Shown piece after piece: positions 1 to 64,000 of a stretch of 64,000 nt of DNA. The DNA is taken from IMG/VR virus record IMGVR_UViG_3300027704_000023. One strand, written 5' to 3'. The notes below the pieces were generated by a model, which saw only the letters and a program-made list of their open reading frames with translations, was not told the origin of the DNA and searched no databases. A program made the position numbers and the translations under genes. The stretch's first letter is position 1. Each line of letters opens with the position of its first letter. The DNA comes from an uncultured virus (IMG/VR IMGVR_UViG_3300027704_000023) (taxonomy: Duplodnaviria; Heunggongvirae; Uroviricota; Caudoviricetes; Crassvirales).

Positions 1-201
1 TAAGAACCTGGGGTCTTTGTTGTTGTGAAGAAAGGTAGACTCTCCATTCCTTACTCTAGAGACTGCACCCCATACAGATGCAGGGCTTCTCTTTAATTCT
101 CTCCCAATTACAGGGAATATTACAAGTTTATACTTGAACTCTCTTGCTGTATTGCAAGCTACTAACAGCTCTTCGGCTGTCCAATGCTTAACGTTTCTCA
201 T
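1..201 (-). CDS. 5' part of the HTH-like gene whose full copy is 62315-62659
   Basis: Same sequence as the start of 62315-62659, cut by the window edge. Confidence 0.85.
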   Translation of the reverse strand, partial: MRNVKHWTAEELLVACNTAREFKYKLVIFPVIGRELKRSPASVWGAVSRVRNGESTFLHNNKDPRFL

Positions 202-231
202 GTTAAATTGTTTTATATAAATTAAATTGTT

Positions 232-426
232 TTACTTTTCAGGGACATTATCGTCCATATTCATCATCAACTCATTGTACACGTACTTAAACTCTTCTGC
301 TTTTAATCTCCACTGCATGGCTATAATAAGTAGATCTTTTTTACTGTGTGCTTTTAACGCGGATTTGATTTGTTCTTTGGACCATGAAGCCAGAGGGTCA
401 GTTTCTATGTCTTTATTTAAACTCAT
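232..426 (-). CDS. Hypothetical phage protein (64 aa)
   Basis: ORF in a tightly packed minus-strand operon; start overlaps the upstream stop (ATGA). Confidence 0.75.
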   Translation of the reverse strand: MSLNKDIETDPLASWSKEQIKSALKAHSKKDLLIIAMQWRLKAEEFKYVYNELMMNMDDNVPEK

Positions 427-647
427 ATTTTTATAAATGTATTTGTTTTGTTTTTTAACTTCTTAGTTACCTTCACCCTTGCTCTTAGCTTTCTAGCGGT
501 TGTGTTCGCTTCCTTCTGTATTACAGCTAGGGTAGCCTCAAAGGCATAAGTAGTAGCTTTCTGATTAAGCTTATCTACAACCTCATACACATCATTACTG
601 TACGCAAGTATATCTCTTATTTCTCTAACACCCAAAAATCTTTTCAT
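423..647 (-). CDS. Hypothetical basic protein (74 aa)
   Basis: ORF with A-rich leader in operon context. Confidence 0.75.
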   Translation of the reverse strand: MKRFLGVREIRDILAYSNDVYEVVDKLNQKATTYAFEATLAVIQKEANTTARKLRARVKVTKKLKNKTNTFIKI

Positions 648-665
648 GTTATTTATATTATGTTA

Positions 666-752
666 ATAAAAAAGGGAGCTCATTGTGCAGCTATCCAAAG
701 CTAAGTAAGGTCTTCACCTTTTTCTTTTAGAATGAAACACACGAACTCCCAA
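666..752 (-). ncRNA. Candidate multi-branch structured RNA or terminator
   Basis: On minus strand GGGAGUUCGU...AUGAGCUCCC forms a 10-bp closing stem (with G-U pairs), encloses two small hairpins and is followed by a U-tract. Confidence 0.5.
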
Positions 753-757
753 TTATA

Positions 758-904
758 TTATGTTTCTTCAAACACGATCCATGCATCATCCTCATCAGGA
801 GATATGTTTACTATGTTCTCGGCTTCTTCTCTTGTTAGATCAGCGTATAACATATGCTTATGGTTAGTTGCTTTATACACTCGTTTTACTGTGTATGTTT
901 TCAT
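758..904 (-). CDS. Small hypothetical protein (48 aa, MKTYTVKRVYKATNHKHMLYADL...), below ORF-track cutoff
   Basis: Read by hand; ATG overlaps the stop of 901-1494. Confidence 0.65.
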   Translation of the reverse strand: MKTYTVKRVYKATNHKHMLYADLTREEAENIVNISPDEDDAWIVFEET

Positions 905-1494
905 GATGTCCATCTATTTCTTATCGTCACCCATACTGTAGCTTGAAGGGTAGACGGGTTAATATTATATTTCTTAGCTACTTTCTGACAATCTTTTTCT
1001 AGTAGTTTATACTGTAAAGGAGTGACTGAAGTTTTACATTCTTTAGGAGAGGAGCTTCGGGTTTGAATAGCTCTAAGGTGCCACTTATCTATAGTGACCT
1101 TGTTAATATCCTCCCCGCTTATATTTTTTGCAAAGGCATATGTTTTAGGTGATTGTTTTAATATCTTTATATCTCCACGAGCTATAGCAAAGGCTTTCAG
1201 CTTGTTGTTATTGTAAGTACAAACCTTAACCTGACTAGGTAAGATGCCTTTTTTCACAGCATCCAGCACTGTGTGTGCATCGATTTTATTCCTACCCCAT
1301 CTATTATTAGGAGATAAAGCGGACACGACACCCGCACAAATAAGTGGCGGGGTATCGAATCTTAGAGAAAGAATTTTAACATAATCCTTAGCCTCATTGT
1401 ACCATACTTTGCCCGACTCACGTTCCTGTAGTGTGGACTCGTTATACCAATATTTTAAAAGGCTTCTACCTTTTGTTCTGTCTTGTAGCGTCAT
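901..1494 (-). CDS. DUF7178-like phage protein, possible HhH-glycosylase-like DNA-acting fold
   Basis: WY..A...GVVSALSPNNRWGRN, SPKTYAF, VTIDKWH and LQATVW motifs recalled for this family. Confidence 0.6.
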   Translation of the reverse strand: MTLQDRTKGRSLLKYWYNESTLQERESGKVWYNEAKDYVKILSLRFDTPPLICAGVVSALSPNNRWGRNKIDAHTVLDAVKKGILPSQVKVCTYNNNKLKAFAIARGDIKILKQSPKTYAFAKNISGEDINKVTIDKWHLRAIQTRSSSPKECKTSVTPLQYKLLEKDCQKVAKKYNINPSTLQATVWVTIRNRWTS

Positions 1495-1532
1495 GATGTA
1501 TAGTTTTGTCCGCTTGAGCGGACGTTATTGTA

Positions 1533-1620
1533 TTGAGCCTAGCGAAGGATTCGAACCTTCTGATAACTACCCCCGAACCAACAGTAGTAGACACCCCCAT
1601 CTTCCAATCGTGGGCTAGGA
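1533..1620 (-). ncRNA. tRNA-like element (pseudo-tRNA)
   Basis: Perfect T-arm GAAGG-TTCGAAT-CCTTC and 6-bp acceptor-like stem CCTAGC/GCTAGG; D and anticodon arms non-canonical. Confidence 0.55.
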
Positions 1621-1626
1621 CATATT

Positions 1627-1803
1627 TCATTTTGTATTGTATTGCAAGCTATGAAATCGACTTGTAACTACACCTTTTCTTTTCGTTTGCATTATCTTAA
1701 GTTGAGCATTTTCGTTGGGATTAGAGGTTAAAAGACACTTTTCTATAGCTTTAAATAGCAGCTTCGTATCATAGCTGTTTAGTCTTATTGGTTCTTCCTT
1801 CAT
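1627..1803 (-). CDS. Small hypothetical protein (58 aa, MKEEPIRLNSYD...)
   Basis: Read by hand; fills the gap in the operon. Confidence 0.55.
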   Translation of the reverse strand: MKEEPIRLNSYDTKLLFKAIEKCLLTSNPNENAQLKIMQTKRKGVVTSRFHSLQYNTK

Positions 1804-1845
1804 TGTTATGTTCTTTAATAAATTCTGCTATTAGTTTATTGTTGT

Positions 1846-2040
1846 TCATTTTGATTTGTGCTTTATTATTGTTCCGCATATAACCTCCCCAATCATCTCC
1901 ATTATATACTCGTTGTCATCAAATGTAGCTATGAGTATAATCTCGGCTTCCGCTTCGGTTATCTCTACATCTAATTCTTTTGCTCGTATGAGTACGTCCT
2001 CAGCACTCCACTTAAGTTCGCTTCCGTTGTAGTATTTCAT
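1846..2040 (-). CDS. Hypothetical early protein (64 aa)
   Basis: ORF with AT-rich leader. Confidence 0.75.
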   Translation of the reverse strand: MKYYNGSELKWSAEDVLIRAKELDVEITEAEAEIILIATFDDNEYIMEMIGEVICGTIIKHKSK

Positions 2041-2057
2041 TTTAATTTAATATTTCG

Positions 2058-2255
2058 TTATTCATGTAATCCGTATTTGTCTATGTACTCTCCTATTGTT
2101 CGTCTTAGCTTACCTACTTTGAGTTCATACATGTTTACTCTTTCTGAATAAGCAAGTATGGTTTCTTGTAGCTGCTCGATTTTTTTATCTTTGTCCATTC
2201 GTTCTCTGTTTTTAGCTCGTTCTTGTACTCCCATAATTACATACAGTCCATACAT
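2058..2255 (-). CDS. Hypothetical coiled-coil protein; true start may be internal (MDKDKK)
   Basis: ORF in operon context. Confidence 0.6.
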   Translation of the reverse strand: MYGLYVIMGVQERAKNRERMDKDKKIEQLQETILAYSERVNMYELKVGKLRRTIGEYIDKYGLHE

Positions 2256-2563
2256 TCATTTATATCTTTGTCTTCATCGAAGCATACGCTCTCTGTGCGA
2301 TCACCACATGAATCACAGGTATACTTGCTTAAGATATCGTTATTGCTATGGATTTTGAATCTATTCAGAAGCCCCTCGAACTCATCGTACTTCTCGTTGT
2401 AGAAGTCCTGAGCCTCACTGCTGAGCAAGGTCTCGTATGAGCCTTCAAAAATCTTACGCTCTTCGTATGTGTCTGCACCATAGTTCATCTCTGTTATCTG
2501 TGTGGTTAGCTCGTCTAACAACTCCATGAATTCTGAGTTGTCTACGTATATTTTATCAGTCAT
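2237..2563 (-). CDS. Acidic hypothetical protein with C-terminal CxxC...CxxC zinc finger
   Basis: CDSC...CMDC motif. Confidence 0.7.
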   Translation of the reverse strand: MTDKIYVDNSEFMELLDELTTQITEMNYGADTYEERKIFEGSYETLLSSEAQDFYNEKYDEFEGLLNRFKIHSNNDILSKYTCDSCGDRTESVCFDEDKDINECMDCM

Positions 2564-2713
2564 GTTTTCTTATATGGTTTAGTTGTCTACCTAGATCGAG
2601 TATGTTCTCACCTTCTGCTATACATAGGTTGTAGTGTTGCCTCCATGCATCGCATGAAAGAAAGTTGTTGAACCAATCGAGATACATAGATTCTATTTGT
2701 GTGTTAGTGTAGT

Positions 2714-2980
2714 TCATATTCGTGGTAAAAAGTGTTCGTCTTTATTAAGCAGCCCTCTTATGTCGTGTGCTATATCAGACATAAGTCCCACTCCACCATT
2801 GATTTTATATTCGCGATCCAACTCTACCAATCGTTTACTCCAATCCTCGTTATCTATACATACTTGTACGATATACCATAAGTTTTCTTCAAACCATTCG
2901 GGTAGGTTATCCTTTACTATATCTATAGCTTGTTTTGATACCTTCGTGTTAGGTATTCCTTCTAATGTTTCTTGACTCAT
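2714..2980 (-). CDS. Hypothetical early protein (88 aa)
   Basis: ORF; start overlaps upstream stop. Confidence 0.75.
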   Translation of the reverse strand: MSQETLEGIPNTKVSKQAIDIVKDNLPEWFEENLWYIVQVCIDNEDWSKRLVELDREYKINGGVGLMSDIAHDIRGLLNKDEHFLPRI

Positions 2981-3363
2981 AATTTTATTGTTGCGTTTAC
3001 TGTTTCAGCACACTCCATAAGGAAGTCATCATCCCAATTTATAATCCCCATCTTGTGTCGCTTTATTTCTTTCTCAGTCAAGTCGGGGTAAAAGAACTTC
3101 TCGATAAACTCGGTACGTGTCATAGTCGGTGGCTTTTTGTACTCATCCACCATCTTGCATATGTCATCGTATATCTTATCCTTGTTGCCCTTGAGTCCGA
3201 AGTAACGCTTGACATCAGTAACTTTCCAATGTCTATTCGGTTTCATGCCTCGTCTCCATAGCCCTAAGTCTCGCTTGGATACGATCAGGTTGTACATACC
3301 TTTGGATGATGCACCTCCGTTGATGCTCATGTCTTTTTCTAAGTCCGTTTCAAATTGTGTCAT
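2977..3363 (-). CDS. Hypothetical early protein (128 aa)
   Basis: ORF starting 9 nt after the palindromic element at 3373. Confidence 0.8.
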   Translation of the reverse strand: MTQFETDLEKDMSINGGASSKGMYNLIVSKRDLGLWRRGMKPNRHWKVTDVKRYFGLKGNKDKIYDDICKMVDEYKKPPTMTRTEFIEKFFYPDLTEKEIKRHKMGIINWDDDFLMECAETVNATIKL

Positions 3364-3393
3364 GATGTATAGTTTTGTCCGCTTAGGCGGACG

Positions 3394-3657
3394 TTATTGT
3401 ATTTCAATTAGTTTTCCGTTAACCTCTTCGTACTGGTGTTCGCTCTCGTCTTCCCATACAGTCCAGTAAAGGACATCTTGTTCGACTGCCTCTTCAAGCA
3501 TTAAGTCATCGCTTTGACTATCGTATGTACCGAACTCAACATCTCGTAGCCAAGCAATTACATCCTTCTCGTACTTGAAGTATTGCTCGCCATCGCCTTG
3601 CAACCAACCTTCGTTCATTCCTTCGCTCGTTATAGAGCATTTACGTGCGTATTTCAT
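3394..3657 (-). CDS. Acidic hypothetical early protein (87 aa)
   Basis: ORF; stop overlaps the palindromic element. Confidence 0.8.
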   Translation of the reverse strand: MKYARKCSITSEGMNEGWLQGDGEQYFKYEKDVIAWLRDVEFGTYDSQSDDLMLEEAVEQDVLYWTVWEDESEHQYEEVNGKLIEIQ

Positions 3658-3660
3658 TTG

Positions 3661-3879
3661 TTATCCTTTTTCTGATGCCCATCCTAAGTCCTCAAATATT
3701 TTCTTGCCATTACGTGGCGGCTTACCTATCGGTATGCGGTAGTCGTGAGGGAAGGCTTCTTCTATCCTTCGTTGGTTATCACCATCTGCCTTGAACCACG
3801 CTTCTATAAGAGATGTTTCAAAACCCCCTGCATGTTTTAGCTGCTTTTGCAACTGCTGTATGTGTTCGTTGTGTGTCAT
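3661..3879 (-). CDS. Hypothetical early protein (72 aa)
   Basis: ORF in operon context. Confidence 0.75.
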   Translation of the reverse strand: MTHNEHIQQLQKQLKHAGGFETSLIEAWFKADGDNQRRIEEAFPHDYRIPIGKPPRNGKKIFEDLGWASEKG

Positions 3880-4070
3880 TTTAATTCGTCTTGTACGTTT
3901 TCTAGTGCCATTTTGTAGCCGAATTGTATAGCCATTTGCATTAGCAATAGGTCCATAGAACCATTATTTGCAGTTGCAAACGATTCTAAATAATCTCTGT
4001 CCTGAGGTGTAGCTACGATACCTTTACCTAGCTTGCGCATCTCTTCCTTGATGTAGTCTTCTATATTCAT
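3876..4070 (-). CDS. Hypothetical early protein (64 aa)
   Basis: ORF starting 12 nt after the element at 4083. Confidence 0.75.
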   Translation of the reverse strand: MNIEDYIKEEMRKLGKGIVATPQDRDYLESFATANNGSMDLLLMQMAIQFGYKMALENVQDELK

Positions 4071-4285
4071 TTGATGATAGCGTTTTGTCCGCTTGTGCGG
4101 ACGTTTTCAATAATACTCATGGCTTTGTCCATGGCGTAGGTGCGTTGTTGCTGCATTGTACCCGCAAGTTGCGGTGTAGGTAGATTTTCAATAAGGCACA
4201 CTGGTGTAATCTGATATGTCTTATCCTCTCGTTGGATAGCATTAGCCATCTCGTTTGTGTGGTGAATCTTGTCTTGTAAGGTCAT
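4067..4285 (-). CDS. Hypothetical early protein (72 aa; start revised to MTLQDK)
   Basis: ATG at 4285 lies 11 nt after the element at 4297, like the other copies; N-terminus MTLQD also starts 901-1494. Confidence 0.65.
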   Translation of the reverse strand: MTLQDKIHHTNEMANAIQREDKTYQITPVCLIENLPTPQLAGTMQQQRTYAMDKAMSIIENVRTSGQNAIIK

Positions 4286-4289
4286 TCTA

Positions 4290-4382
4290 TTATAGGTTTT
4301 GTCCGCTTGTGCGGACGTTATTAAATTCATTATCTATGTCTTGCATTGCTTGTTGCATTGCTTGTAGTTCTTCTTCGTTCAT
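4290..4382 (-). CDS. Micro-ORF (30 aa, MNEEELQAMQQAMQDIDNEFNNVRTSGQNL)
   Basis: Read by hand; ends across the palindromic element. Confidence 0.4.
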   Translation of the reverse strand: MNEEELQAMQQAMQDIDNEFNNVRTSGQNL

Positions 4383-4511
4383 TGCAGTATATCTTTTATG
4401 ATTTGCATTATAATAGCCGTTGATATTGCGACTACAAATATATTTACTATTGTCATTTTGCTTGTATTTATTATGTTAATAGATGTTATTTTGTCCGCTT
4501 GGGCGGACGTT

Positions 4512-5048
4512 TTACGCTTCGATTAATTCAGTCAGTTCGATGTCGACTAATTGCTTCAATAGTTCCGCTTTGACTGTTCTAGTCATGTCTTCCAGTACTG
4601 CGAGTACTTCGCTTAATTCAGATTTGGTTTTTAGTTTACCTTCACTGTCAAGGCTTGCGCTAATTCCTTTTTCATCTTCTGTTTTGGGTCTACTTAAGTT
4701 GCATTTATTGGGGGCTTTTAGTGGTGTATCCTTCAAGAATTTCAACAGGTCTGATATCGATGCGGTGGGCTGACCTTTTAGCGATTCGATGTATTTTTCA
4801 ACGTCTTCGATTTTTGTGGTGGATGCGTTTCTTATATCGCCGAAAAAAGTTTTCTTGTATCCATACAGTTCACAGAGTCCATCTCTGTCAATACCTAGTT
4901 TTTTCTTGTTTGCTTTCCAGTAATCGTAACCTTGCGAGCATAATTTGCCCATTTCGAGTTGAGTATAAAGGCTTTCTATTGTGCCCTTGTTAGCCTTCGC
5001 GCTGAGTACTTTTACGCTCTCTACATTTTTGTTTAAAATTGAATCCAT
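4512..5048 (-). CDS. Putative HTH DNA-binding protein (DUF3102-like N-terminus)
   Basis: EMGKL...GIDRDGLCELYGYKKTFFGDIRNA looks helix-turn-helix-like; flanked by two palindromic elements. Confidence 0.5.
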   Translation of the reverse strand: MDSILNKNVESVKVLSAKANKGTIESLYTQLEMGKLCSQGYDYWKANKKKLGIDRDGLCELYGYKKTFFGDIRNASTTKIEDVEKYIESLKGQPTASISDLLKFLKDTPLKAPNKCNLSRPKTEDEKGISASLDSEGKLKTKSELSEVLAVLEDMTRTVKAELLKQLVDIELTELIEA

Positions 5049-5180
5049 AATTTAACTATTTATTTATTTATATATACACCCTAACTTTTAGGGCATGGTT
5101 TTAATTGGTTGCCATTTTGGAATTAATCCCGCGCAGGTTCACGCATCCGTCCTATGTTTTGTCCGCTTGGGCGGACGTTT

Positions 5181-5417
5181 TTATCTCGTCAATTCGCGCT
5201 GCTTTGCTTTGCGCTTATGTTCACGTTCACGCGCTCGGTCAATTTTGTAGCCGTAGCCAAATTCGATGTTGTCCGCTTTGCGCTTACTGTCCGATGCCCT
5301 GCGTTTAGAGTTTCGCTTAACAGCCATGGGAGGGTGATTTCGCAGCGTGTCCGTGGGTCGCTTGCGGTTTCTGTGCTCGCTATCGCCCTTTATATATTTT
5401 ATCGTTTCATTAATCAT
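5181..5417 (-). CDS. Arg/Lys-rich first early protein (78 aa; start revised to 5417)
   Basis: ATG 4 nt after the -7 element; RAREREHKRKAKQRELTR at C-terminus. Confidence 0.6.
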   Translation of the reverse strand: MINETIKYIKGDSEHRNRKRPTDTLRNHPPMAVKRNSKRRASDSKRKADNIEFGYGYKIDRAREREHKRKAKQRELTR

Positions 5418-5421
5418 ATTG

Positions 5422-5454
5422 CAAATATTCATTCATTGTTTCTAAGCATCCAAA
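5422..5454 (-). promoter_or_regulatory. Bacteroidota sigmaA-type early promoter
   Basis: -33 TTTG (5454-5451), 21-nt spacer, -7 AATATTTG (5429-5422; one mismatch to TAnnTTTG). Confidence 0.65.
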
Positions 5455-5570
5455 CATTTAACAAAATTTGGGAGCATCCCATTTATCGGTGTATTTATTA
5501 ACTGTGTGTGCTATCTCGTTATTCATACCACAAAGATGGGGTGATGACTTTCGCCCATCCTAATAAATAC

Positions 5571-6376
5571 TGTTAACGAATGTTAAAACTGTAATTAACT
5601 GATTATCAAGTAGTTATAAGTGTTATTTGGTTAACTCCCTCATAATCAACGAGTTACACGAATTAGAGCTGAGCTTTGCCATTTTATACATAGAACCCCG
5701 CACATGTACGCGCGCACGTGAAACAAAAACTTTTATTCTAACCATTGATAATCAAGCAGTTACGAAATTAACTTTATTTAACATACTCTAACTAACTGAG
5801 TATCAGTCAATTATGCGAGGTTTAACGATCTCAACCATAGCTGTATACTAGTATCACTACATCAAAATAAACGGCTTAAAACGGCTTAAAATCGCCTTAA
5901 CATTAATTAACAAATAAAAGGTTTTGTAAGTAGTTGGTTTTGAATGGTTTAAAAACAATTAACATAGCGGTGTTAGTAAGTATTAACAATGAATGTCGAA
6001 GTTGAGCAAATATGTTGTAGGTACTCATAAATGAGTTATAATAATTATTATGTAAACCAAGAGGGGTATTGTACTAGTTCTTTAAGTCCCTATATACTAA
6101 CGACATACAACACAACACTTAAATAATTACTACGTTTAAAGCCTGTTAACTTACTGATTGACAACGAGATACATGTAGTGTATACATACAATCAAAACTA
6201 AATACTAGCAGTAGATACCTAACTCACTGGTAATCAATGACATACCATCAACTAGTTAATGTAGTCCTTCAATAGTATGGGGTTAACTGATTGCAAATCA
6301 ATAAGATACCAGTAAAAGCTGAATATGTACGGCAAAAAAGATGAATATACAAGGGTACGGGGTTAAAAAATGTTAA
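5571..6376. repeat. Non-coding control region with eight 25-bp imperfect palindromes (TAACTnnYTGATnATCARnnAGTTA) and about six TTAACA-N4-TTAACA direct repeats
   Basis: Palindromes at 5592, 5632, 5738, 5789, 5927, 6147, 6220, 6284; direct repeats at 5571, 5768, 5897, 5949, 5971, 6361. Confidence 0.8.
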
Positions 6377-6579
6377 TTCCGATTAGCAAATCTATCGCCC
6401 TAGGTTATATATAATCCCCATTCTAAACATTTCTACAATTTTTTTACGATTGCGGTCCTCGAACCATGTTTTTTTGTCCTTTGCGATCTCTATTTACTTA
6501 AAGCTTTACTTTAACTAACCCTTCTAAACGCTTGACTACGTTATACTTAACCCTTATTATTTAAATCTTCTCTAAGGAC

Positions 6580-6610
6580 TTGACTTTTCAAAAAAAAAGT
6601 GGTAACTTAG
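6580..6610 (+). promoter_or_regulatory. Candidate rightward promoter
   Basis: TTG, 20-nt spacer, TAACTTAG (variant -7 element). Confidence 0.4.
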
Positions 6611-6773
6611 CAGCGTATTTAGCGGGTACCGTGTACAACTACCGAAATATTTTGTTTTGTATACGAGAGCTAGTCTTACCGACACTGATCTAATATGTAC
6701 AGTGGTATACGCCCTCACTATATCCTGTTGTTAAAAGGCCTTCCTTTAGCAATACACGTAGAGTTCTTTTAGT

Positions 6774-6781
6774 TATCTTTG
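6774..6781 (+). promoter_or_regulatory. Bacteroidota -7 element TATCTTTG, 4 nt before ATG
   Basis: Exact TAnnTTTG match. Confidence 0.7.
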
Positions 6782-6785
6782 CTTT

Positions 6786-9700
6786 ATGCCTAGAGTACGT
6801 AAATATCATAATGGGGGGAAAGGACCTGGACACCCACATTCTAAAGCTCAAACACCATCAGATTCGAAGGAGTTTATAGAAGAGTACTTTAAATCTTTAA
6901 AGATAGATCAAAACAGCGATTATCCAGGATCATATTCCGATACACAACGAGAATATCTCACAGGGTATAAGGGTTCTGACTGGAGTACTATGTATGGGGA
7001 AAAAAACCTTTCTGCTCAAGAGTCTAGGGAAATGATAGAGTCTTTGGTGGACTATATAAAAAATAGATCGGTAAGTCGTAATGTAAAATCTAGAAAAGTT
7101 GCGCTAGACCACTATAATTACTTATTGAGTTTAAGTGATGAGGACCTACCTAAGAGTTACCGAAGTGGCGCTGAACTAGCACCAGCTTTTTTTGATACAT
7201 CAATGATGGATAAAGTGCCTTTATTGGGGCCTCCTAAAAACAATCAACCTTTAAAGCAGTTGATGAAGAGTAATGCATCTGTACCTACGTCTAAACGCAA
7301 TACAGAGCTTATGTACAAGCTTAACGCTAATATGCGTACTGGGCAAGAACCTGACAAGTATAAAGTTTGGGATGAGAAAGGTAAGAAGTGGAGTATGAGG
7401 GATGTGGAGCCTGAGGAGTTAGAGTACTATAGAAATAAAAATAAGATTCAAGAGAGGCAAAACATAAAGGCTTCTTTTAACCATGGGGGTAGAGTAAGAA
7501 AATATCAAGACGGTGGTGATGTAAATGACTTGCTTAAGATGCTAAATGCATTTGGAAGTGCAGATCCTAAGGATAAAGAGGTGTTATCTAGCTTAGTATC
7601 TGAGAGTACTCAACCATCAGGATACACTGCACCAGTCCTACCTGAAGAGAAGAAAATAGACTTAATACCTAAGCCTAATTACGGGTTTGACAGAGAATTA
7701 AGTGGATCAGAAAGGGCTTCTATGGAGATGTATGGCTTTCCAGGCGGCGGATCTAATGTTACAAGTGATTGGAGAACAACTCTAGCCTCTCTTGTACCTG
7801 CCGTTGCAGCTGCACCTGGTGGATTAGGGTTAATAGGGAGCGGATTTAATACTTTATATACCCCTATGACTTGGGCTATACCAGGTTTAAAAGGCTTAAC
7901 GGGGCATCATGTCTTGAGTGCTATGGGGCTTAATCATATGATTACAGAGACGCCAGAAGCTATAGGGGAGTTTATAGAGAACCCTTCTCCTGGTCAAGCC
8001 CTTCATGTAACATGGGATGCATTAATGGGTGTTCCAGCTATAAGTATGCTTAGAAAAGGTATCCCAGCTTCAATAAAAGCCTTTCAAGAAGCTAAAACAT
8101 TAGCTAGATTTAAAAGAGGGGCGGCTGGAGAGGGTACTTTCCTATGGGATGATACGGCAAAGGACTGGAGAAAGATGACTCAGGCAGAACAAGAGTGGTT
8201 TAATCTTGCTGAAGAGGCAAACCCTAAGCTTATATCGTCTATTACTGAACCAGCAGCTTCTCAGGACCCTTTACAACAACTAGCTGGCAAAAAACCTAAA
8301 GTAAAAAATAAGAAATACGAACCTGTGAATGCGTACGAGGAGAGTAATGTGGCTCAAACCACATCTACTTCATCAATCCCTTTTAGTAAAGAAGTATCTC
8401 AACTCTATGGTGGTTCTGATAAAACGGGCATGAAGACGCTAAATAAACAGATTGATTTTATTAAAAACAACATTGTAAGTTTAGAGAAAGGAATAAGCGA
8501 AGCTCATTATGACACCTGGGGTGATCGAGCAGCAGATATTAATAACTATACCTCCCAATTAAACAATTTTAAAAATGCTCTAAAAAGAGCTAAAGATATA
8601 CAAAGCGAACTCGGTTTTGGTGTCGATAATACTGGTGTATACCAATACCCATCGTTTATGACGGGTAGTAAGATAGAGAAGCAGGTTTCACCTAAAGACG
8701 GGACTATAGCTAGATCTGCATTAGAACAGTTAGTAAAGAATAAAAACACTAGAACTAGTGAAGCTACAGCTGTTAAAGATGTTTTAGGTGAATTTGAAGG
8801 CAAGAGGATCCCGTATGAAAATTTTAAACAGTCTTTAGCTTTAGATATACGTTCTGCTGATATTATACCTACAAATGTATATTCTAATGTAGGGATCCCA
8901 GAGTTGTCAGAGTATAGAAAGTGGAAGTATAATATAACCACAAAAACTAATCTTTATAAAGATGCTTCTTTAGGGTTAACAAAAGAAGGGGAGAGTCACT
9001 TCCCAGATACTCCTCATAGCTTCTGGATAAGAAGTTTCCCTTATGAAAACTCATTAAGAATCCTAGAGTGGCAAACGGATGTAGGGAAGTTAAAAATTCC
9101 TTCAAATGTCCTTCCAGGATCTAAAGAGGCTGCAGATTATTATCCTGAGCAAATAAGTGGGAGTGTCTTTGATGGGGATCCAGATGTAATGCTTAGTGTA
9201 GATAAGCAGATTAAAATATTTAAACATCAAATAAAAAACCTAAAGAGAGATTATAAAGGAAACGAATTAGGTTATGAAGATACTTTAGCAAAAATGGAGA
9301 AAGGTTTAAAAATAGCATTAGACCATCGAAAGCAAGCTATGAAAACACCTAGTTTTAAGGAGGTAGAAGCCGCTGCAGAAGGCCTCTCACTTAAGTTTTT
9401 AAACGAGTCTCTTTTAGATGCTGCGAGACAAGGTAAGAAGTATTTAGACGTACCTACAGCGGAAACGGTATTTACTATTGAGGGGTGGACAAAACCTAAT
9501 GATGTTAAGTTAGATCCTTTATATGAGGAACAATCTGACATAGTTAAGCTTTATGATACTAATTTCCCACGTATAAGTTCATATTCGCTTGATGGGACAA
9601 ACGAAAGAATTCAAGCTATTAATAACGTCGAGTCCAGAGTTGGTGTAGAGGCGTTAATAAAAAATACAATTAAAGAAAAAGAGGTAATTTACGATCTATT

Positions 9701-10850
9701 AATTAATAGTATTGAAAAGAACAACCCCGTTGCTATAGGTGTGTTTTATAAATTAAATAAAGGTGCGGATTTTGAGGATATGTACTTAGACCTTAAACAG
9801 GCAATGGCAGTAGAATACGATAGTGGTATAAAACCGTTGACTTTTTCAAAAAAAGTAAATGATCTAAAAAAGAACTACTTAATTGAGATTAAAAAGATTA
9901 AATCTTTAGATGCTAAAAAAGCACAAGAGAATATAATAAAGTATAAAGCAAGTCAAAAGAAAATAGATAATATAAAATCTCGCCCTTTTGATATTAAAGA
10001 TATAGGTGGGGAGAACCCTACAGACGAACAGAAAAAGAAGATGGCAGAGTTCTATTCTTTAACCGAAGACTACAGAAATACCCCTAAATTATTTAAAAGC
10101 ACATTTGGTACAGATGCTATTCCCTTTACGGATGAGTTTGGTAATACATACAACCGTGTCGTAGTCCCAGAAAAGTTCTTCCAAACAGACCCATCTAAAC
10201 CTTTAGAGATTAAGACATATAAAAAAGGGGGGTTATTAAATAAGCTTGTAAAAAAATATCAAGACGGTGGGGGTATTTTTAAAAAACTAAGACAAAGAAG
10301 GGCTGATCGTAGAATAGAGAAAACACCTGTTAGAGATGCTAGTAGCCAGGAGGTATTAGAAATGCTTGCTAGTTACGGGGCTGACAGCCCTATGATGCAA
10401 GGGGAGTACGATCCTAGAGAGAAAGAGATCGTTATGTATAAGGATGATCCAGATACACTTAAGCACGAACAGGTACATGCAACACAATATGGTCCTTTAC
10501 AACGCTTAGCTAAAAGAATGAATGATGAAAGGAGCGCTAGGATACAAGACCCATCAAAGAGAAAAGCATATAGAGAGCTTACTAGCGGGAGAAATATGGT
10601 TGACGATAGATCGTTCAATCCTGCTGGTCAGTATGTTTTAGGTAAAGGGGAAGAGTTTGAGGCGGTATTAGACACAGGTGTAAATGCAGCAAAAGAAAAA
10701 GGAGTTAACTTTAACGCTTCGTTTGAGGAAATACTTTCTCAATTGAAAAATATACCTTCCCCTACTAATAATATGAGAGGTTTAATGAAGTTTATGAGTA
10801 ATAAGTTTACTAAAGAACAAAGGGATTTAATCCTTAAGTCTATAAGATGA
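6786..10850 (+). CDS. Large polyvalent protein, probably virion cargo, with C-terminal HExxH metallopeptidase-like domain
   Basis: LKHEQVHATQY with downstream Glu; SHF...WIR...LEWQTD domain; hydrophobic Gly/Ala segment; repeated K-Y-x-x-G-G motifs. Confidence 0.7.
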   Translation: MPRVRKYHNGGKGPGHPHSKAQTPSDSKEFIEEYFKSLKIDQNSDYPGSYSDTQREYLTGYKGSDWSTMYGEKNLSAQESREMIESLVDYIKNRSVSRNVKSRKVALDHYNYLLSLSDEDLPKSYRSGAELAPAFFDTSMMDKVPLLGPPKNNQPLKQLMKSNASVPTSKRNTELMYKLNANMRTGQEPDKYKVWDEKGKKWSMRDVEPEELEYYRNKNKIQERQNIKASFNHGGRVRKYQDGGDVNDLLKMLNAFGSADPKDKEVLSSLVSESTQPSGYTAPVLPEEKKIDLIPKPNYGFDRELSGSERASMEMYGFPGGGSNVTSDWRTTLASLVPAVAAAPGGLGLIGSGFNTLYTPMTWAIPGLKGLTGHHVLSAMGLNHMITETPEAIGEFIENPSPGQALHVTWDALMGVPAISMLRKGIPASIKAFQEAKTLARFKRGAAGEGTFLWDDTAKDWRKMTQAEQEWFNLAEEANPKLISSITEPAASQDPLQQLAGKKPKVKNKKYEPVNAYEESNVAQTTSTSSIPFSKEVSQLYGGSDKTGMKTLNKQIDFIKNNIVSLEKGISEAHYDTWGDRAADINNYTSQLNNFKNALKRAKDIQSELGFGVDNTGVYQYPSFMTGSKIEKQVSPKDGTIARSALEQLVKNKNTRTSEATAVKDVLGEFEGKRIPYENFKQSLALDIRSADIIPTNVYSNVGIPELSEYRKWKYNITTKTNLYKDASLGLTKEGESHFPDTPHSFWIRSFPYENSLRILEWQTDVGKLKIPSNVLPGSKEAADYYPEQISGSVFDGDPDVMLSVDKQIKIFKHQIKNLKRDYKGNELGYEDTLAKMEKGLKIALDHRKQAMKTPSFKEVEAAAEGLSLKFLNESLLDAARQGKKYLDVPTAETVFTIEGWTKPNDVKLDPLYEEQSDIVKLYDTNFPRISSYSLDGTNERIQAINNVESRVGVEALIKNTIKEKEVIYDLLINSIEKNNPVAIGVFYKLNKGADFEDMYLDLKQAMAVEYDSGIKPLTFSKKVNDLKKNYLIEIKKIKSLDAKKAQENIIKYKASQKKIDNIKSRPFDIKDIGGENPTDEQKKKMAEFYSLTEDYRNTPKLFKSTFGTDAIPFTDEFGNTYNRVVVPEKFFQTDPSKPLEIKTYKKGGLLNKLVKKYQDGGGIFKKLRQRRADRRIEKTPVRDASSQEVLEMLASYGADSPMMQGEYDPREKEIVMYKDDPDTLKHEQVHATQYGPLQRLAKRMNDERSARIQDPSKRKAYRELTSGRNMVDDRSFNPAGQYVLGKGEEFEAVLDTGVNAAKEKGVNFNASFEEILSQLKNIPSPTNNMRGLMKFMSNKFTKEQRDLILKSIR

Positions 10851-10876
10851 ATATAAATAGAAGAACTATTCCAGGT

Positions 10877-11485
10877 ATGAGGGTGAGGAAGTTCCATAAC
10901 GGAGGGAAAGGTCCTGGACATCCTCATGGAGATCTTAACACAGCTAAATTAGACAGCATATTATCCTCTAGTGTAGATTCTCCTATTTTTGAATTCTCTG
11001 AATTTAGGGATTTAGTAGGTACTCATGAAGGTGGTATTGGGGCTTATTCCGCTAGTCAAATAGGAGGAGGTCCAGGAAAAGGGAGATATCAATTTGACGA
11101 AGAATCAGCTAAAACAGCTTATAATAGATTAAAAACTATAGCTACCGATAGAGGCTACAGTATTCCTGAACTAACTAACGAGGATTTTAAGAACATGGAT
11201 AAGGTTTCCCCAGAGATACAAGATCTTCTGTTTACGGCTAATATTGCAAAATCTCCAAGTACTTCCATAGCTACTATATTGACTGATAAGTCTCAGTGGG
11301 ATAATCAATGGCTTGACGGTCATTGGAGGGGGAAGGATGAGGATAAAGAGACGAGACGAGCGTCCTTTAAGCACACTCAAGAAAATATGCCAGACCCTGA
11401 ACCTAAAGATAAACCTTCGAATTCGTTTTTCCTACCTATGTTTCCAGATGAAAACACCATGCAATTTATCCATAAAGACTTTTAA
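10877..11485 (+). CDS. Putative virion-associated lysozyme-like hydrolase (start revised to MRVRKFHNGG)
   Basis: THEGG...YSA...GKGRYQF lysozyme-like pattern; N-terminus matches that of 6786. Confidence 0.55.
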   Translation: MRVRKFHNGGKGPGHPHGDLNTAKLDSILSSSVDSPIFEFSEFRDLVGTHEGGIGAYSASQIGGGPGKGRYQFDEESAKTAYNRLKTIATDRGYSIPELTNEDFKNMDKVSPEIQDLLFTANIAKSPSTSIATILTDKSQWDNQWLDGHWRGKDEDKETRRASFKHTQENMPDPEPKDKPSNSFFLPMFPDENTMQFIHKDF

Positions 11486-11489
11486 CTAA

Positions 11490-11642
11490 ATGAATAACAA
11501 AACTAACAACCCTAACGAAGAGTTCGATCAACCTTCTTTCCTTAACCCAGAAAAGTTAAAAAAACAAGAGGATAAAATAAAGTCTGGAGAGACAACTTGC
11601 AATATAGAGTCTCCGCATGAGTGCGAAGGGTGTGGTTCATAA
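11490..11642 (+). CDS. Small protein (50 aa) ending CNIESPHECEGCGS
   Basis: Read by hand; fills the intergenic gap. Confidence 0.65.
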   Translation: MNNKTNNPNEEFDQPSFLNPEKLKKQEDKIKSGETTCNIESPHECEGCGS

Positions 11643-11647
11643 TACCT

Positions 11648-11655
11648 TATATTTG
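11648..11655 (+). promoter_or_regulatory. -7 element TATATTTG
   Basis: Exact consensus, intergenic. Confidence 0.65.
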
Positions 11656-11671
11656 TAAAAAATAAAAAGTT

Positions 11672-11947
11672 ATGCAGATTAAAAAATACAACATGGGTGG
11701 TCAATCACCAAAATATTTAGTTGGAGGCCAAGTGCCACAATACAACATGGGTGGTCAAATGCAAGGTCAAATGCAAAGAGAATCTCAAGGAGGATCATCA
11801 CCAGAAGTGAGTATGTTGTTGGAGATGTTAGATTCGTTTGGTATTCCAGATGAAGTAACTGTTGGGGAGATTAAAGAGAAAATGCTAAACAATAGCGGGG
11901 AAAGTGTTGGTATGAATATACCTCCTTCTCCTATGCAGATGCAATAA
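11672..11947 (+). CDS. Hypothetical protein with three Y-x-x-G-G repeats
   Basis: KKYNMGG, KYLVGG, QYNMGG. Confidence 0.75.
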   Translation: MQIKKYNMGGQSPKYLVGGQVPQYNMGGQMQGQMQRESQGGSSPEVSMLLEMLDSFGIPDEVTVGEIKEKMLNNSGESVGMNIPPSPMQMQ

Positions 11948-11950
11948 TAC

Positions 11951-12412
11951 ATGGCTACTTTAAACGTCACTATAACTGAAGAGTTAACACTCAATGGTGC
12001 TGACAGGGGTTCTACAAACACTCTTGCTGTATCTTCTGTTACTCAAGTTTATCATAGGATAGTTACTTGTCCAGCGTCCTCAGATACTACTATAGCTACA
12101 TTCCAGACTTTAACAAGCACTACCGATAACGCTTTAGATTTAGAAGATGCAAAGTATTTAAGAGTAACAAATCTTGGTGCCCAACCAGTAAACCTTTCCT
12201 TACAAGTTTCAGGGGGTGAAAATGGAACGGAAAATATGTCTGCTACTATATTGTTAGCTGCGGGAACATCTTACATCATGGGCGCTGTTCATGACGGTAT
12301 ATCTGTATCTGATGCAAACGCTGATATTGTTACAGCTTTAACTGATTTAGAAAGTATACTTGTAGACCCAGGAACTAATGCCGTTACAATGGAGATTTTT
12401 ATAGCTTCATAA
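11951..12412 (+). CDS. Putative virion structural beta-sandwich protein
   Basis: Thr/Ala/Ser-rich; YLRVTN motif distantly like the 24141-26153 family. Confidence 0.65.
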   Translation: MATLNVTITEELTLNGADRGSTNTLAVSSVTQVYHRIVTCPASSDTTIATFQTLTSTTDNALDLEDAKYLRVTNLGAQPVNLSLQVSGGENGTENMSATILLAAGTSYIMGAVHDGISVSDANADIVTALTDLESILVDPGTNAVTMEIFIAS

Positions 12413-12687
12413 TGAAACCTATAAAAAGATATGAGCATGGTGGTATGCACTGGGATATTCCAGAAGAGCAAACTAGAAGGGAAAAAAGAAAACAAGAAAA
12501 AGAAGATGAAGAAGGTATGATCCCTGCTAGGTTCAGGAATCGCGGACAAGCTGGATTAGACGCATATATACTTATGATGAGGAGTAAAAAACAAAAAGGC
12601 AAAAGAAATAAAGTAAAAATAAAAAAAGGTTTTCAGCAGAAACAAGAAGGACATTGTGAAGGCGGGAGCTGTGGACAATTTGGTTGA
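12412..12687 (+). CDS. Basic hypothetical protein with KRYEHGG tag
   Basis: ORF with TAATG coupling. Confidence 0.7.
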   Translation: MKPIKRYEHGGMHWDIPEEQTRREKRKQEKEDEEGMIPARFRNRGQAGLDAYILMMRSKKQKGKRNKVKIKKGFQQKQEGHCEGGSCGQFG

Positions 12688-55036: not shown

Positions 55037-55473
55037 GCGAAAAGAAGAAAATTAAAGACACTAAGCTAGGCGCTTGGTTGTCAGAGAAAGCCCCAAGTAT
55101 ACTCGGTGTAGTAGGAGACCTTTTACCAGATAGCGGGGCGTTAGGTGTGGTTAAAAACCTTATAGATAAGGATGATAGCGTTGACTCTGAAGAGGCTCAG
55201 CGTATGATAGATGCCGAAGTGCGCTTTCAAGAGAACGTTACAGAACGTTGGAAAGCAGATATGGGCAGTGATGTAAAGCTTGCTAAGCTTATACGACCAC
55301 TAACCCTTATTGTTCTGATGTCTATGTTTATGGTAACTATGGTGGCTGACTCTATAGATAGCCTTCCGTTTACCGTAAAGGACTCCTATGTAGACCTGTT
55401 ACAGATACTTATGATGACTGCCTTTGGAGCTTACTTCGCAGGTAGAACTATAGAGAAGGCTAAAAACAAATAA
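55033..55473 (+). CDS. Putative holin (3TM-holin-like)
   Basis: RWKADM...LIRPL, two TM segments, GAYFAGRTIEK. Confidence 0.75.
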   Translation: MSEKKKIKDTKLGAWLSEKAPSILGVVGDLLPDSGALGVVKNLIDKDDSVDSEEAQRMIDAEVRFQENVTERWKADMGSDVKLAKLIRPLTLIVLMSMFMVTMVADSIDSLPFTVKDSYVDLLQILMMTAFGAYFAGRTIEKAKNK

Positions 55474-56032
55474 TCTCTTCAGAGTATACTCCGTTAAAAA
55501 GAATGTTAATCTTCTTCTCTATTAAATCTTCAGTACCTCTTTTTGTACGTAAATCTATAATATCGTAGATATCTTTCCGACGGTAATCCCATTTATTAAT
55601 ATCTTTTTTAATATTTTTTATATCTAATTGTAGATCTTTGTTTTTTACATTAAGGTTGAATATATCCTCTTTCAACATCCTTATAGTTTCTTTTAAAAAA
55701 GTTGTTTCAGCTGTATCAATCTCAATACCTTGAATCCTATTTTTTTCTAAGTCGTAAAGCTTTAAACAATCATCGTATCTTTCAGAAAAGGAAGAGTCTG
55801 AAGCCAATAGACCTTTAATAGATCTTACAGCGTAAAGTACAGTAGCGTGATCTTTATTTAAAAAAGCACCTATACTAGTACTTGAGTTGGACTCATTACT
55901 TAATATAGAGCAGAATACTCTTCTGGCATCAACGTTTACTCTTGATCGTCCTTCGAAATGTATTTCAGCCTTGAAGGCCTTGTTTACAATTTCCTTTAAC
56001 GCTTCAGCATGTTCTAATTTTAATTCACTCAT
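55460..56032 (-). CDS. DnaA domain IV-like HTH protein with coiled coil
   Basis: R....VDARR...IGAFLNKDHATVLYA. Confidence 0.75.
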   Translation of the reverse strand: MSELKLEHAEALKEIVNKAFKAEIHFEGRSRVNVDARRVFCSILSNESNSSTSIGAFLNKDHATVLYAVRSIKGLLASDSSFSERYDDCLKLYDLEKNRIQGIEIDTAETTFLKETIRMLKEDIFNLNVKNKDLQLDIKNIKKDINKWDYRRKDIYDIIDLRTKRGTEDLIEKKINILFNGVYSEEIICF

Positions 56033-62659: not shown

Positions 62660-64000
62660 GTTAAATTGTTTTATATAAATTAAATTGTTTTACTTTTCAG
62701 GGACATTATCGTCCATATTCATCATCAACTCATTGTACACGTACTTAAACTCTTCTGCTTTTAATCTCCACTGCATGGCTATAATAAGTAGATCTTTTTT
62801 ACTGTGTGCTTTTAACGCGGATTTGATTTGTTCTTTGGACCATGAAGCCAGAGGGTCAGTTTCTATGTCTTTATTTAAACTCATATTTTTATAAATGTAT
62901 TTGTTTTGTTTTTTAACTTCTTAGTTACCTTCACCCTTGCTCTTAGCTTTCTAGCGGTTGTGTTCGCTTCCTTCTGTATTACAGCTAGGGTAGCCTCAAA
63001 GGCATAAGTAGTAGCTTTCTGATTAAGCTTATCTACAACCTCATACACATCATTACTGTACGCAAGTATATCTCTTATTTCTCTAACACCCAAAAATCTT
63101 TTCATGTTATTTATATTATGTTAATAAAAAAGGGAGCTCATTGTGCAGCTATCCAAAGCTAAGTAAGGTCTTCACCTTTTTCTTTTAGAATGAAACACAC
63201 GAACTCCCAATTATATTATGTTTCTTCAAACACGATCCATGCATCATCCTCATCAGGAGATATGTTTACTATGTTCTCGGCTTCTTCTCTTGTTAGATCA
63301 GCGTATAACATATGCTTATGGTTAGTTGCTTTATACACTCGTTTTACTGTGTATGTTTTCATGATGTCCATCTATTTCTTATCGTCACCCATACTGTAGC
63401 TTGAAGGGTAGACGGGTTAATATTATATTTCTTAGCTACTTTCTGACAATCTTTTTCTAGTAGTTTATACTGTAAAGGAGTGACTGAAGTTTTACATTCT
63501 TTAGGAGAGGAGCTTCGGGTTTGAATAGCTCTAAGGTGCCACTTATCTATAGTGACCTTGTTAATATCCTCCCCGCTTATATTTTTTGCAAAGGCATATG
63601 TTTTAGGTGATTGTTTTAATATCTTTATATCTCCACGAGCTATAGCAAAGGCTTTCAGCTTGTTGTTATTGTAAGTACAAACCTTAACCTGACTAGGTAA
63701 GATGCCTTTTTTCACAGCATCCAGCACTGTGTGTGCATCGATTTTATTCCTACCCCATCTATTATTAGGAGATAAAGCGGACACGACACCCGCACAAATA
63801 AGTGGCGGGGTATCGAATCTTAGAGAAAGAATTTTAACATAATCCTTAGCCTCATTGTACCATACTTTGCCCGACTCACGTTCCTGTAGTGTGGACTCGT
63901 TATACCAATATTTTAAAAGGCTTCTACCTTTTGTTCTGTCTTGTAGCGTCATGATGTATAGTTTTGTCCGCTTGAGCGGACGTTATTGTATTGAGCCTAG
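62459..64000. repeat. Second copy of 1-1542, including duplicate ORFs 62690-62884, 62881-63105 and 63359-63952
   Basis: Direct sequence identity. Confidence 0.97.

Follow-up and report, generated by a model that had tools for sequence, protein, structure and literature searches.

Why should a phage carry the same short palindrome six times at the junctions of its early genes? The question is raised by a stretch of 64,000 nucleotides (nt) from an uncultured marine virus of the Crassvirales, IMG/VR record IMGVR_UViG_3300027704_000023, and this whole stretch is referred to here as the window. A reading made from the letters alone had pointed to these elements and had offered RNA hairpins, DNA sites for a dimeric helix-turn-helix (HTH) protein, or gene-shuffling junctions as explanations; this sequence-only reading was partly supported. 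The six palindromes are probably double-stranded DNA sites for a 178-amino-acid (aa) HTH protein of the phage itself, because the palindrome changes whenever the DNA-reading helix of this protein changes across relatives; bound there, the protein may damp early transcription. That the 178-aa protein binds the palindromes is highly probable.

The source genome is a circle of 62,458 nt, and the closing 1542 nt of the window duplicate its opening 1542 nt with 1 mismatch. A scan of the whole window for GTCCGC-N4-GCGGAC with up to 2 mismatches returned 7 matches, every one perfect; shuffled sequences gave a mean of 0.21 and a maximum of 2, and 0 of 100 shuffles attained 7. Because the ends of the window repeat, the match at 63966 is a copy of site 6, which leaves 6 distinct copies, all within 3.7 kb at the start of the early unit. 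The palindrome array is thus confirmed as real and well beyond chance. Genes for early functions and replication occupy the minus strand from about 5430 and late genes the plus strand from 6786. The terminase is 48% identical to that of MW202828, an uncultured spring phage, and 34 to 40% identical to those of the Flavobacterium phage elemo and of Cellulophaga phages; due to this resemblance, the host is likely a member of the Bacteroidota. The palindromes and the two genes around the first of them are as follows.

5181..5417, minus strand: gene 1, a 78-aa Arg/Lys-rich protein with an Arg-rich end, without a family, possibly leaderless
4512..5048, minus strand: candidate reader of 178 aa, with N-terminal helices, HTH helices 55-62 and 66-76, and C-terminal three strands plus a helix
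5161..5176, no strand: site 1, palindrome separating gene 1 from the HTH gene
4493..4508, no strand: site 2, palindrome 3 nt past the stop codon of the HTH gene
4301..4316, no strand: site 3, translated as the end of a 30-aa open reading frame (ORF), 15 nt ahead of the ATG at 4285
4087..4102, no strand: site 4, translated as the last residues of the MTLQDK ORF, 16 nt ahead of the ATG at 4070
3377..3392, no strand: site 5, at the stop of an 87-aa ORF, 13 nt ahead of the ATG at 3363
1508..1523, no strand: site 6, 13 nt ahead of the DUF7178 gene
63966..63981, no strand: wrap copy of site 6 and hence no additional site

Most of what had been described for these elements was reproduced. All six are perfect, with the loops CCAA, CCAA, ACAA, ACAA, CTAA, and TCAA and with AAC and AAAA flanks; three copies are located at stop codons, two are translated as NVRTSGQN at ORF ends, and, the wrap aside, none occurs elsewhere in the window at up to 2 mismatches. 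Two genes begin with MTLQD, and sites 5 and 6 (3377 and 1508) share a context of 45 nt with 43 identical positions. A diverged copy of site 6 is found ahead of the equivalent DUF7178 gene in the related locus L006. The distance of 9 to 12 nt given for four ATGs is correct when counted from the AAAA end, and the palindrome itself ends 13 to 16 nt before them. The flanks are most likely due to stop codons and to A-rich starts of translation. An A-rich flank ahead of an ATG is consistent with translation starts in Bacteroidetes, which, in the available part of the source, are described as devoid of a Shine-Dalgarno sequence and as favoring A and low structure (PMC6847099). The claim that all elements share one orientation did not survive, since the core palindrome has none and relatives show flipped spacers.

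The HTH gene comes second in the early unit, with site 1 ahead of it and site 2 behind. The AlphaFold model of its product (pLDDT 92.5) places the HTH at about residues 55 to 76, with three helices in residues 1 to 51 immediately ahead of it. A homodimer model reached a score of 0.58, with contacts at least 98% alike between runs and a pLDDT of at least 83, while the highest of 3 controls scored 0.00; 20 of 30 solved pairs and 1 of 23 single chains attain the mark used for such models. Fold comparison listed Spo0J (Z 7.0, rmsd 4.2, 87 residues aligned), KorB (Z 5.8), and ParB-parS (Z 5.5), and the Atlas rows DUF3102 (0.91) and HTH_ParB (TM 0.41) are leads in addition. The 178-aa protein is therefore predicted from its models to be a homodimeric HTH protein with a weak ParB/KorB-like fold. 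It contains no CTPase domain of the ParB type and no ParB_N match. For the C-terminal domain, the best row of a fold search had a Z of 4.0 without a clear match, and a COMMD identity was not accepted since the rows had a high rmsd. By the register of the turn glycine, K66 may correspond to ParB R173 and D71 to ParB N178, two residues that contact parS according to the accessible text of PMC7383237.

Scans with the 178-aa protein yielded 8 viral and 30 metagenome loci. Three were set aside, namely the truncated L084, L088 as a duplicate of the window, and L099, which lies on the contig of L083; together with the window, 36 rows were kept. Sites were present in all 36 of them, 152 in total, usually with the first site 108 to 150 nt ahead of the HTH gene and the next just past its stop codon. 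The half-site in this group is GT[C/A]C[G/A]C with a spacer of 3 or 4 nt, and at least five site types occur. Base 3 of the half-site follows residue 66, with C at 162 of 164 half-sites for K66 and A at 116 of 126 for N66, and T66 accompanies both bases (12 and 2). Base 5 follows residue 71: D71 is found with G (44/44), and Y71 (72/72), R71 (10/10), and M71 (11/12) are found with A. On a tree of 29 distinct proteins among 35 long-enough rows, built without the tested columns, the changes in the sites and in the residues were equal in number (2 and 2, 4 and 4, 1 and 1). When all 178 columns served as a control, column 71 was the sole error-free predictor of base 5 and column 66 the simplest of 4 predictors of base 3. 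L117 and L112 are separated by 9 residues, of which 3 are in the helix, and the sites of L117 shift toward GTCCGC; L114 and L117 have GTCCGC where their sisters have GTCCAC, even within an ORF. In G005, G007, and the window genome, the sites are limited to the early region; G001 gave no match to the early region of the window.

A profile search led to a longer subfamily with 92 viral loci; the best 80 of them were used together with MW202828 (81 loci, 75 distinct proteins). These distant proteins have a median identity of 47% among themselves and are 13 to 25% identical to the window protein. A blind search for repeated palindromes in their loci returned GTGTC-N6-GACAC, of which a perfect copy was present in 81 of 81 loci from 900 nt upstream of the gene onward, with at least two copies in 78. 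In this subfamily, the helix, of the QKSFFYK type, and the site are both conserved. MW202828 possesses a different helix, and the fetched 28.6 kb of its genome contain 14 perfect copies of a zero-spacer palindrome, GTGTCGTTAACGACAC. All five complete distant genomes harbor 9 to 18 sites genome-wide, dense in the early and sparse in the late part, and the reversed control gave 0. A site within a late ORF, located by a peptide anchor, is retained by 27 of 28 distinct sequences; its synonymous bases do not vary, in contrast to the adjacent codons. A single peptide-anchor search for a second in-gene site ("gene B") in the distant loci gave no match. In loci L119 to L197, two conserved places with a site in late-gene coding sequence are located about 1.4 to 2.4 kb and 4.3 to 5.7 kb upstream of the HTH gene (61 copies).

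The linkage was also followed from the site to the gene. Among at least 79 loci from motif scans, 25 were dense in sites, and 23 of these contained the HTH gene; the remaining 2 belong to contigs already known to hold it (10 contigs overall). Neither HTH gene nor array was present in the stretches of the cultured relatives elemo (32 kb), phi38:1 (50 kb), and phi18:3 (42 kb), in G003, or in the partial stretches L008 to L015. No homologue was confirmed among 102 candidate stretches from GTDB genomes, and in the phage collection only MW202828 was found, itself uncultured, and no cultured homologue. The sequencing runs listed as carrying the sequence include no RNA run. L007, which lacks HTH gene and sites, carries in its early region two copies of another imperfect A/T-rich palindrome, at 5353-5404 and 6292-6343.

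These data can be combined into a possible course of events. The 178-aa protein would be made at once after infection as the second early product and would then dimerize, each dimer setting one recognition helix per half-site so that base 3 is read by residue 66 and base 5 by residue 71. The six bound sites would span the HTH gene itself and the first 3.7 kb, and the bound dimers may lower expression of the HTH gene as well as of the earliest, variable genes, either as a roadblock for the elongating host polymerase or by looping, without covering a promoter. Repeated junctions may assist the spread of the sites by recombination. Given binding, damping of early transcription is the favored purpose and comes close to an even call, with a structural role nearly as likely. 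Two promoter-like candidates of the −7 type (TAnnTTTG) are positioned ahead of the early unit.

5422..5429, minus strand: promoter-like −7 element, consensus match only, 4 nt ahead of the ATG of gene 1, with site 1 about 250 nt farther downstream
5531-5538: second promoter-like candidate, consensus match

A promoter-like element is present at the equivalent position in close relatives. In the window, it precedes site 1 by about 250 nt, and in the distant homologues it follows the first site by 140 to 200 nt; simple promoter occlusion is unlikely because of this distance and because the side differs between the subfamilies.

Evaluation of the explanation as DNA operators needs to consider a number of points that weigh against it. 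The independent contrasts comprise just 2 plus 2 pairs on starred branches, all concordant, with a sign test p of 0.5 each, and the spacer length changes once on the tree. Residues 66 and 71 were picked after inspection of the data, and E71 and Q71 accompany both bases at position 5. The helix changes of L114 and L117 may be one shared swap, and the proteins look mosaic. The Z values of the fold comparison fall in the range reached by common helical arrangements; Foldseek returned nothing under an E value of 0.001 for the 178-aa protein, Pfam and PDB profile searches returned nothing significant, and it was assigned to no PHROGs family. No site overlaps the conserved promoter-like element, and the genome-wide sites of the distant genomes fit a structural role equally. 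Later distant sites often have paired flanks (first flank base G-U in 45 versus A-C in 15 of 238), and an added RNA role in the distant homologues is possible.

The structural role would use the same protein and the same sites as a lattice, comparable to parS or the Noc sites, that compacts, positions, or shields the incoming DNA or serves as a gate against superinfection, with an effect on transcription being secondary. It competes with damping as the purpose, not with binding; given binding it is plausible at somewhat below even chances, and taken as a whole it is a tentative candidate. The sites spread over the five complete distant genomes are in favor of this role, as are those retained inside late genes of the opposite unit, the missing fixed link to a promoter, the ParB-like rows of the fold comparison, and the at least five site types in close relatives, as immunity groups would yield. 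The restriction of the sites to the early region in the window genome, G005, and G007 argues against it, and the CTPase domain is missing. No ParA was found among the 58 window proteins compared with PHROGs, a scan that left the tail-fiber block and some small ORFs outside. The distant subfamily, moreover, holds one site across 75 distinct proteins, unlike a diversifying immunity. A host protein as the reader, or a host REP-type repeat acquired by the phage, is very unlikely, since the site follows the helix of a phage protein across relatives and gene and site are linked in both directions.

RNA hairpins in the early transcript are an alternative; they would be read by the product of gene 1 in the manner of lambda N and boxB, serve as translational operators, or mark places of processing. 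Each window copy indeed folds into a 6-bp stem, both arms covary in relatives, many sites are located 10 to 19 nt ahead of an ATG, and the Arg-rich end of gene 1 and the paired G-U flanks of later distant sites would suit such a function. Covariation of the stem versus conservation of the bases, suggested as a means to discriminate between RNA and DNA sites, does not do so, since the arms change together and this is expected under either. The stem mismatches of 95 distinct close sites on the sense strand are a mix of 18 G-U, 12 A-C, and 4 other. Positions 7 and 10 of the distant sites are complementary in 274 of 300 contexts, which weighs against RNA because this pair would close a loop of 2 nt, so that no room for a loop is left. 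Gene 1 does not track the site: it precedes the HTH gene in 28 of 28 close loci, is near-identical in the window and L083 despite differing sites, and is missing from most distant homologues (present in 3 of 75 loci). The gene 1 proteins are mosaic and 70 to 95 aa long and start about 4 nt after a promoter-like element. The spacer varies in length and direction, the site is retained antisense to late genes, and an Rfam search of window positions 1 to 7000 gave only 2 weak rows, both under the gathering score. Zero-loop palindromes, flipped spacers, and the frozen in-gene site argue against RNA hairpins, and this explanation is improbable. Likewise, hairpin promoters for a virion RNA polymerase as in N4 were rejected: no large ORF contains the catalytic D-x-D-G-D motif (3 chance matches in six frames), and the loops are not conserved. 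An integron attC site or a solitary CRISPR repeat, judged by their general features, was not accepted either, as the AAC lacks a GTT opposite to it in the dyad, and neither length nor ends match.

The statement that the elements are not ordinary terminators holds for the sense strand, where none of 54 close 16-bp sites has a U-tract; on the opposite (plus) strand, 4 of the 6 window copies scored as terminator-like. They could be intrinsic terminators for antisense transcripts from the plus strand, and a U-rich antisense tail is enriched at close 16-bp sites (27/54) compared to random positions (2569/12337, 21%). It is found at just 14 of 50 15-bp and 44 of 324 distant sites and results from the A-rich stop-codon context, which makes termination a far-fetched function. 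Shuffling junctions, with repeats that exist for recombining early cassettes as in the promoter early stem-loop (PeSL) elements of T4-type phages, are a very improbable explanation as well. In its favor, gene content and order between the sites differ widely among 26 loci, additional segments bring additional sites in L017, L092 and L095 carry 15-bp sites of another clade, and site junctions have about 1.5 times the density of homology ends (376 in 5807 nt versus 445 in 10669 nt). In population contigs from 4 marine DNA runs, which were matched at 85% likeness and some of which derive from other phages, joints occur near sites 3 to 5 and also at plain junctions; one contig lacks site 5 due to a deletion of 26 nt. 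Against this, plain junctions serve as homology breakpoints nearly as often (122/154, compared to 48/53 at sites), 27 of 124 sites are inside called ORFs, the element possesses neither promoter nor sense terminator, and recombination requires neither dyad symmetry nor covariation with the helix of a protein. The sites appear to ride on a hyperplastic region rather than to drive its shuffling, which would be a side effect only. A recurrent short ORF start of the NNKLIAEF type in early genes (window 1818-1857, minus strand; L006:103-1373) has many loose ends and joints in the population contigs and is likely a recombination hot spot unrelated to the sites. Among the explanations originally offered, the DNA sites for a dimeric HTH protein were supported by covariation, linkage, and the homodimer model, with the 4512-5048 product as the candidate.

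The nearest published case is that of the 17-bp dyads of the Cluster O mycobacteriophages, which in the available part of the source have no reader or function assigned (PMC4351075). In common with these are invariant arms, a short variable A/T-rich spacer, many copies that are intergenic as well as in genes, a higher density at one end, a location mostly off promoters, a missing integrase, and occasional indels between repeats (PMC4351075); conserved arms, variable spacers, and both kinds of copies were all found here. The same text mentions a protein with a parB-like domain, Corndog gp90. Sequence and host phylum are different, and covariation ties a reader family to the site here, unlike in Cluster O as far as that text goes (PMC4351075). 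As in ParB-parS and Noc-NBS, a dimeric HTH protein, predicted in the present case, would act on a two-fold palindrome, and a few interface residues switch the specificity (available text of PMC7383237); as with KorB and its OB sites on RK2, repression would come from dispersed sites (PMC11790492, in part). The 178-aa protein differs from ParB and KorB by the weak fold match (Z 5.5 to 7.0) and by the missing N-terminal CTPase domain, and because of the latter it should not form a sliding clamp.

The stoperators of cluster A phages are likewise many sites in short intergenic regions, bound by a phage HTH protein and proposed to stop elongation; in the text at hand they are described as asymmetric, oriented, bound by a monomer, and used for lysogeny (PMC9283540). 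The sites here are perfect dyads with spacers flipped between clades; their reader is predicted to be a dimer, and no integrase was found. T4-type PeSL cassettes share small repeated elements, a hyperplastic early region, and gene shuffling (PMC2839356, as far as available). The present element, in contrast, lacks both a promoter and a sense terminator, no promoter-like motif keeps a constant distance to close sites, and the shuffling appears not to be specific to it. Aca regulators are early phage HTH proteins that limit early genes from inverted repeats, and some also bind RNA motifs and control several operons; their sites, in the accessible portion of PMC13551039, are within promoters, and they belong to a different protein family. 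In both subfamilies here, the promoter-like element, a consensus match only, is 140 to 260 nt from the first site.

In lambda N/boxB, a phage-specific RNA loop is paired with an Arg-rich protein. Here, gene 1 is near-identical across differing sites, and the loops vary in length and direction. The system would work like KorB or a stoperator network and yet appears to belong to none of these groups, because the CTPase domain is missing (ParB/KorB), the sites are symmetric (stoperators), promoter and terminator are absent (PeSL), and the sites are off the promoter (Aca). Phage K1-5 (L211) carries three 16-bp GTCTC-N6-GAGAC dyads at 6002, 6183, and 8393, with arms one base off those of the distant subfamily. 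The helix of its gp6 (L211 2353-3237) aligns in the register of the 178-aa family without significance (hhalign probability 0.4 against the family profile). A literature search, with supplements and most subscription papers outside its range, found no account of the 178-aa protein family.

It is possible, albeit rather doubtful, that a widespread and so far unrecognized module of lytic phages is seen here, composed of a first-made ParB-like dimer without CTPase and a lattice of 15- to 17-bp dyads that marks the phage's own incoming DNA, in phages of Bacteroidota, in K1-5/SP6-like phages, and in Cluster O. If so, the module would organize incoming DNA or gate sibling genomes, and its specificity groups would diverge like immunity groups. 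Natural variation over about 100 distinct proteins provides a reader family and a residue-to-base code, in contrast to the Cluster O dyads, readerless in the available text (PMC4351075). With this code, binding, specificity swaps, and function can be tested directly by means of synthetic genes and short oligonucleotides. The code also yields a few candidate orthogonal protein-operator pairs and points to a layer of control in abundant uncultured aquatic phages of Bacteroidota.

Some further features were noted beside the palindromes. ARAGORN found no tRNA. It misses a short noncoding stretch at 1533-1620 of the window (minus strand) that has a T arm of the tRNA type and ends resembling an acceptor, of which Rfam matches just the T arm of tmRNA, below threshold. 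Similar stretches, often beside a site, are present in L081 (three), L091 (two), L082, L098, L100, L086, L096, and L007, and these are possibly a family of tRNA-like early RNAs. A second HTH-type protein, encoded at 55460-56032 (minus strand) by the gene that closes the early/replication unit, has a DnaA C-terminal-like domain (Pfam E value 2.5e-07, just under the cut-off). Several late ORFs at 6786-12687 (plus strand) share short repeats of the KYxxGG type and belong to no PHROGs family.

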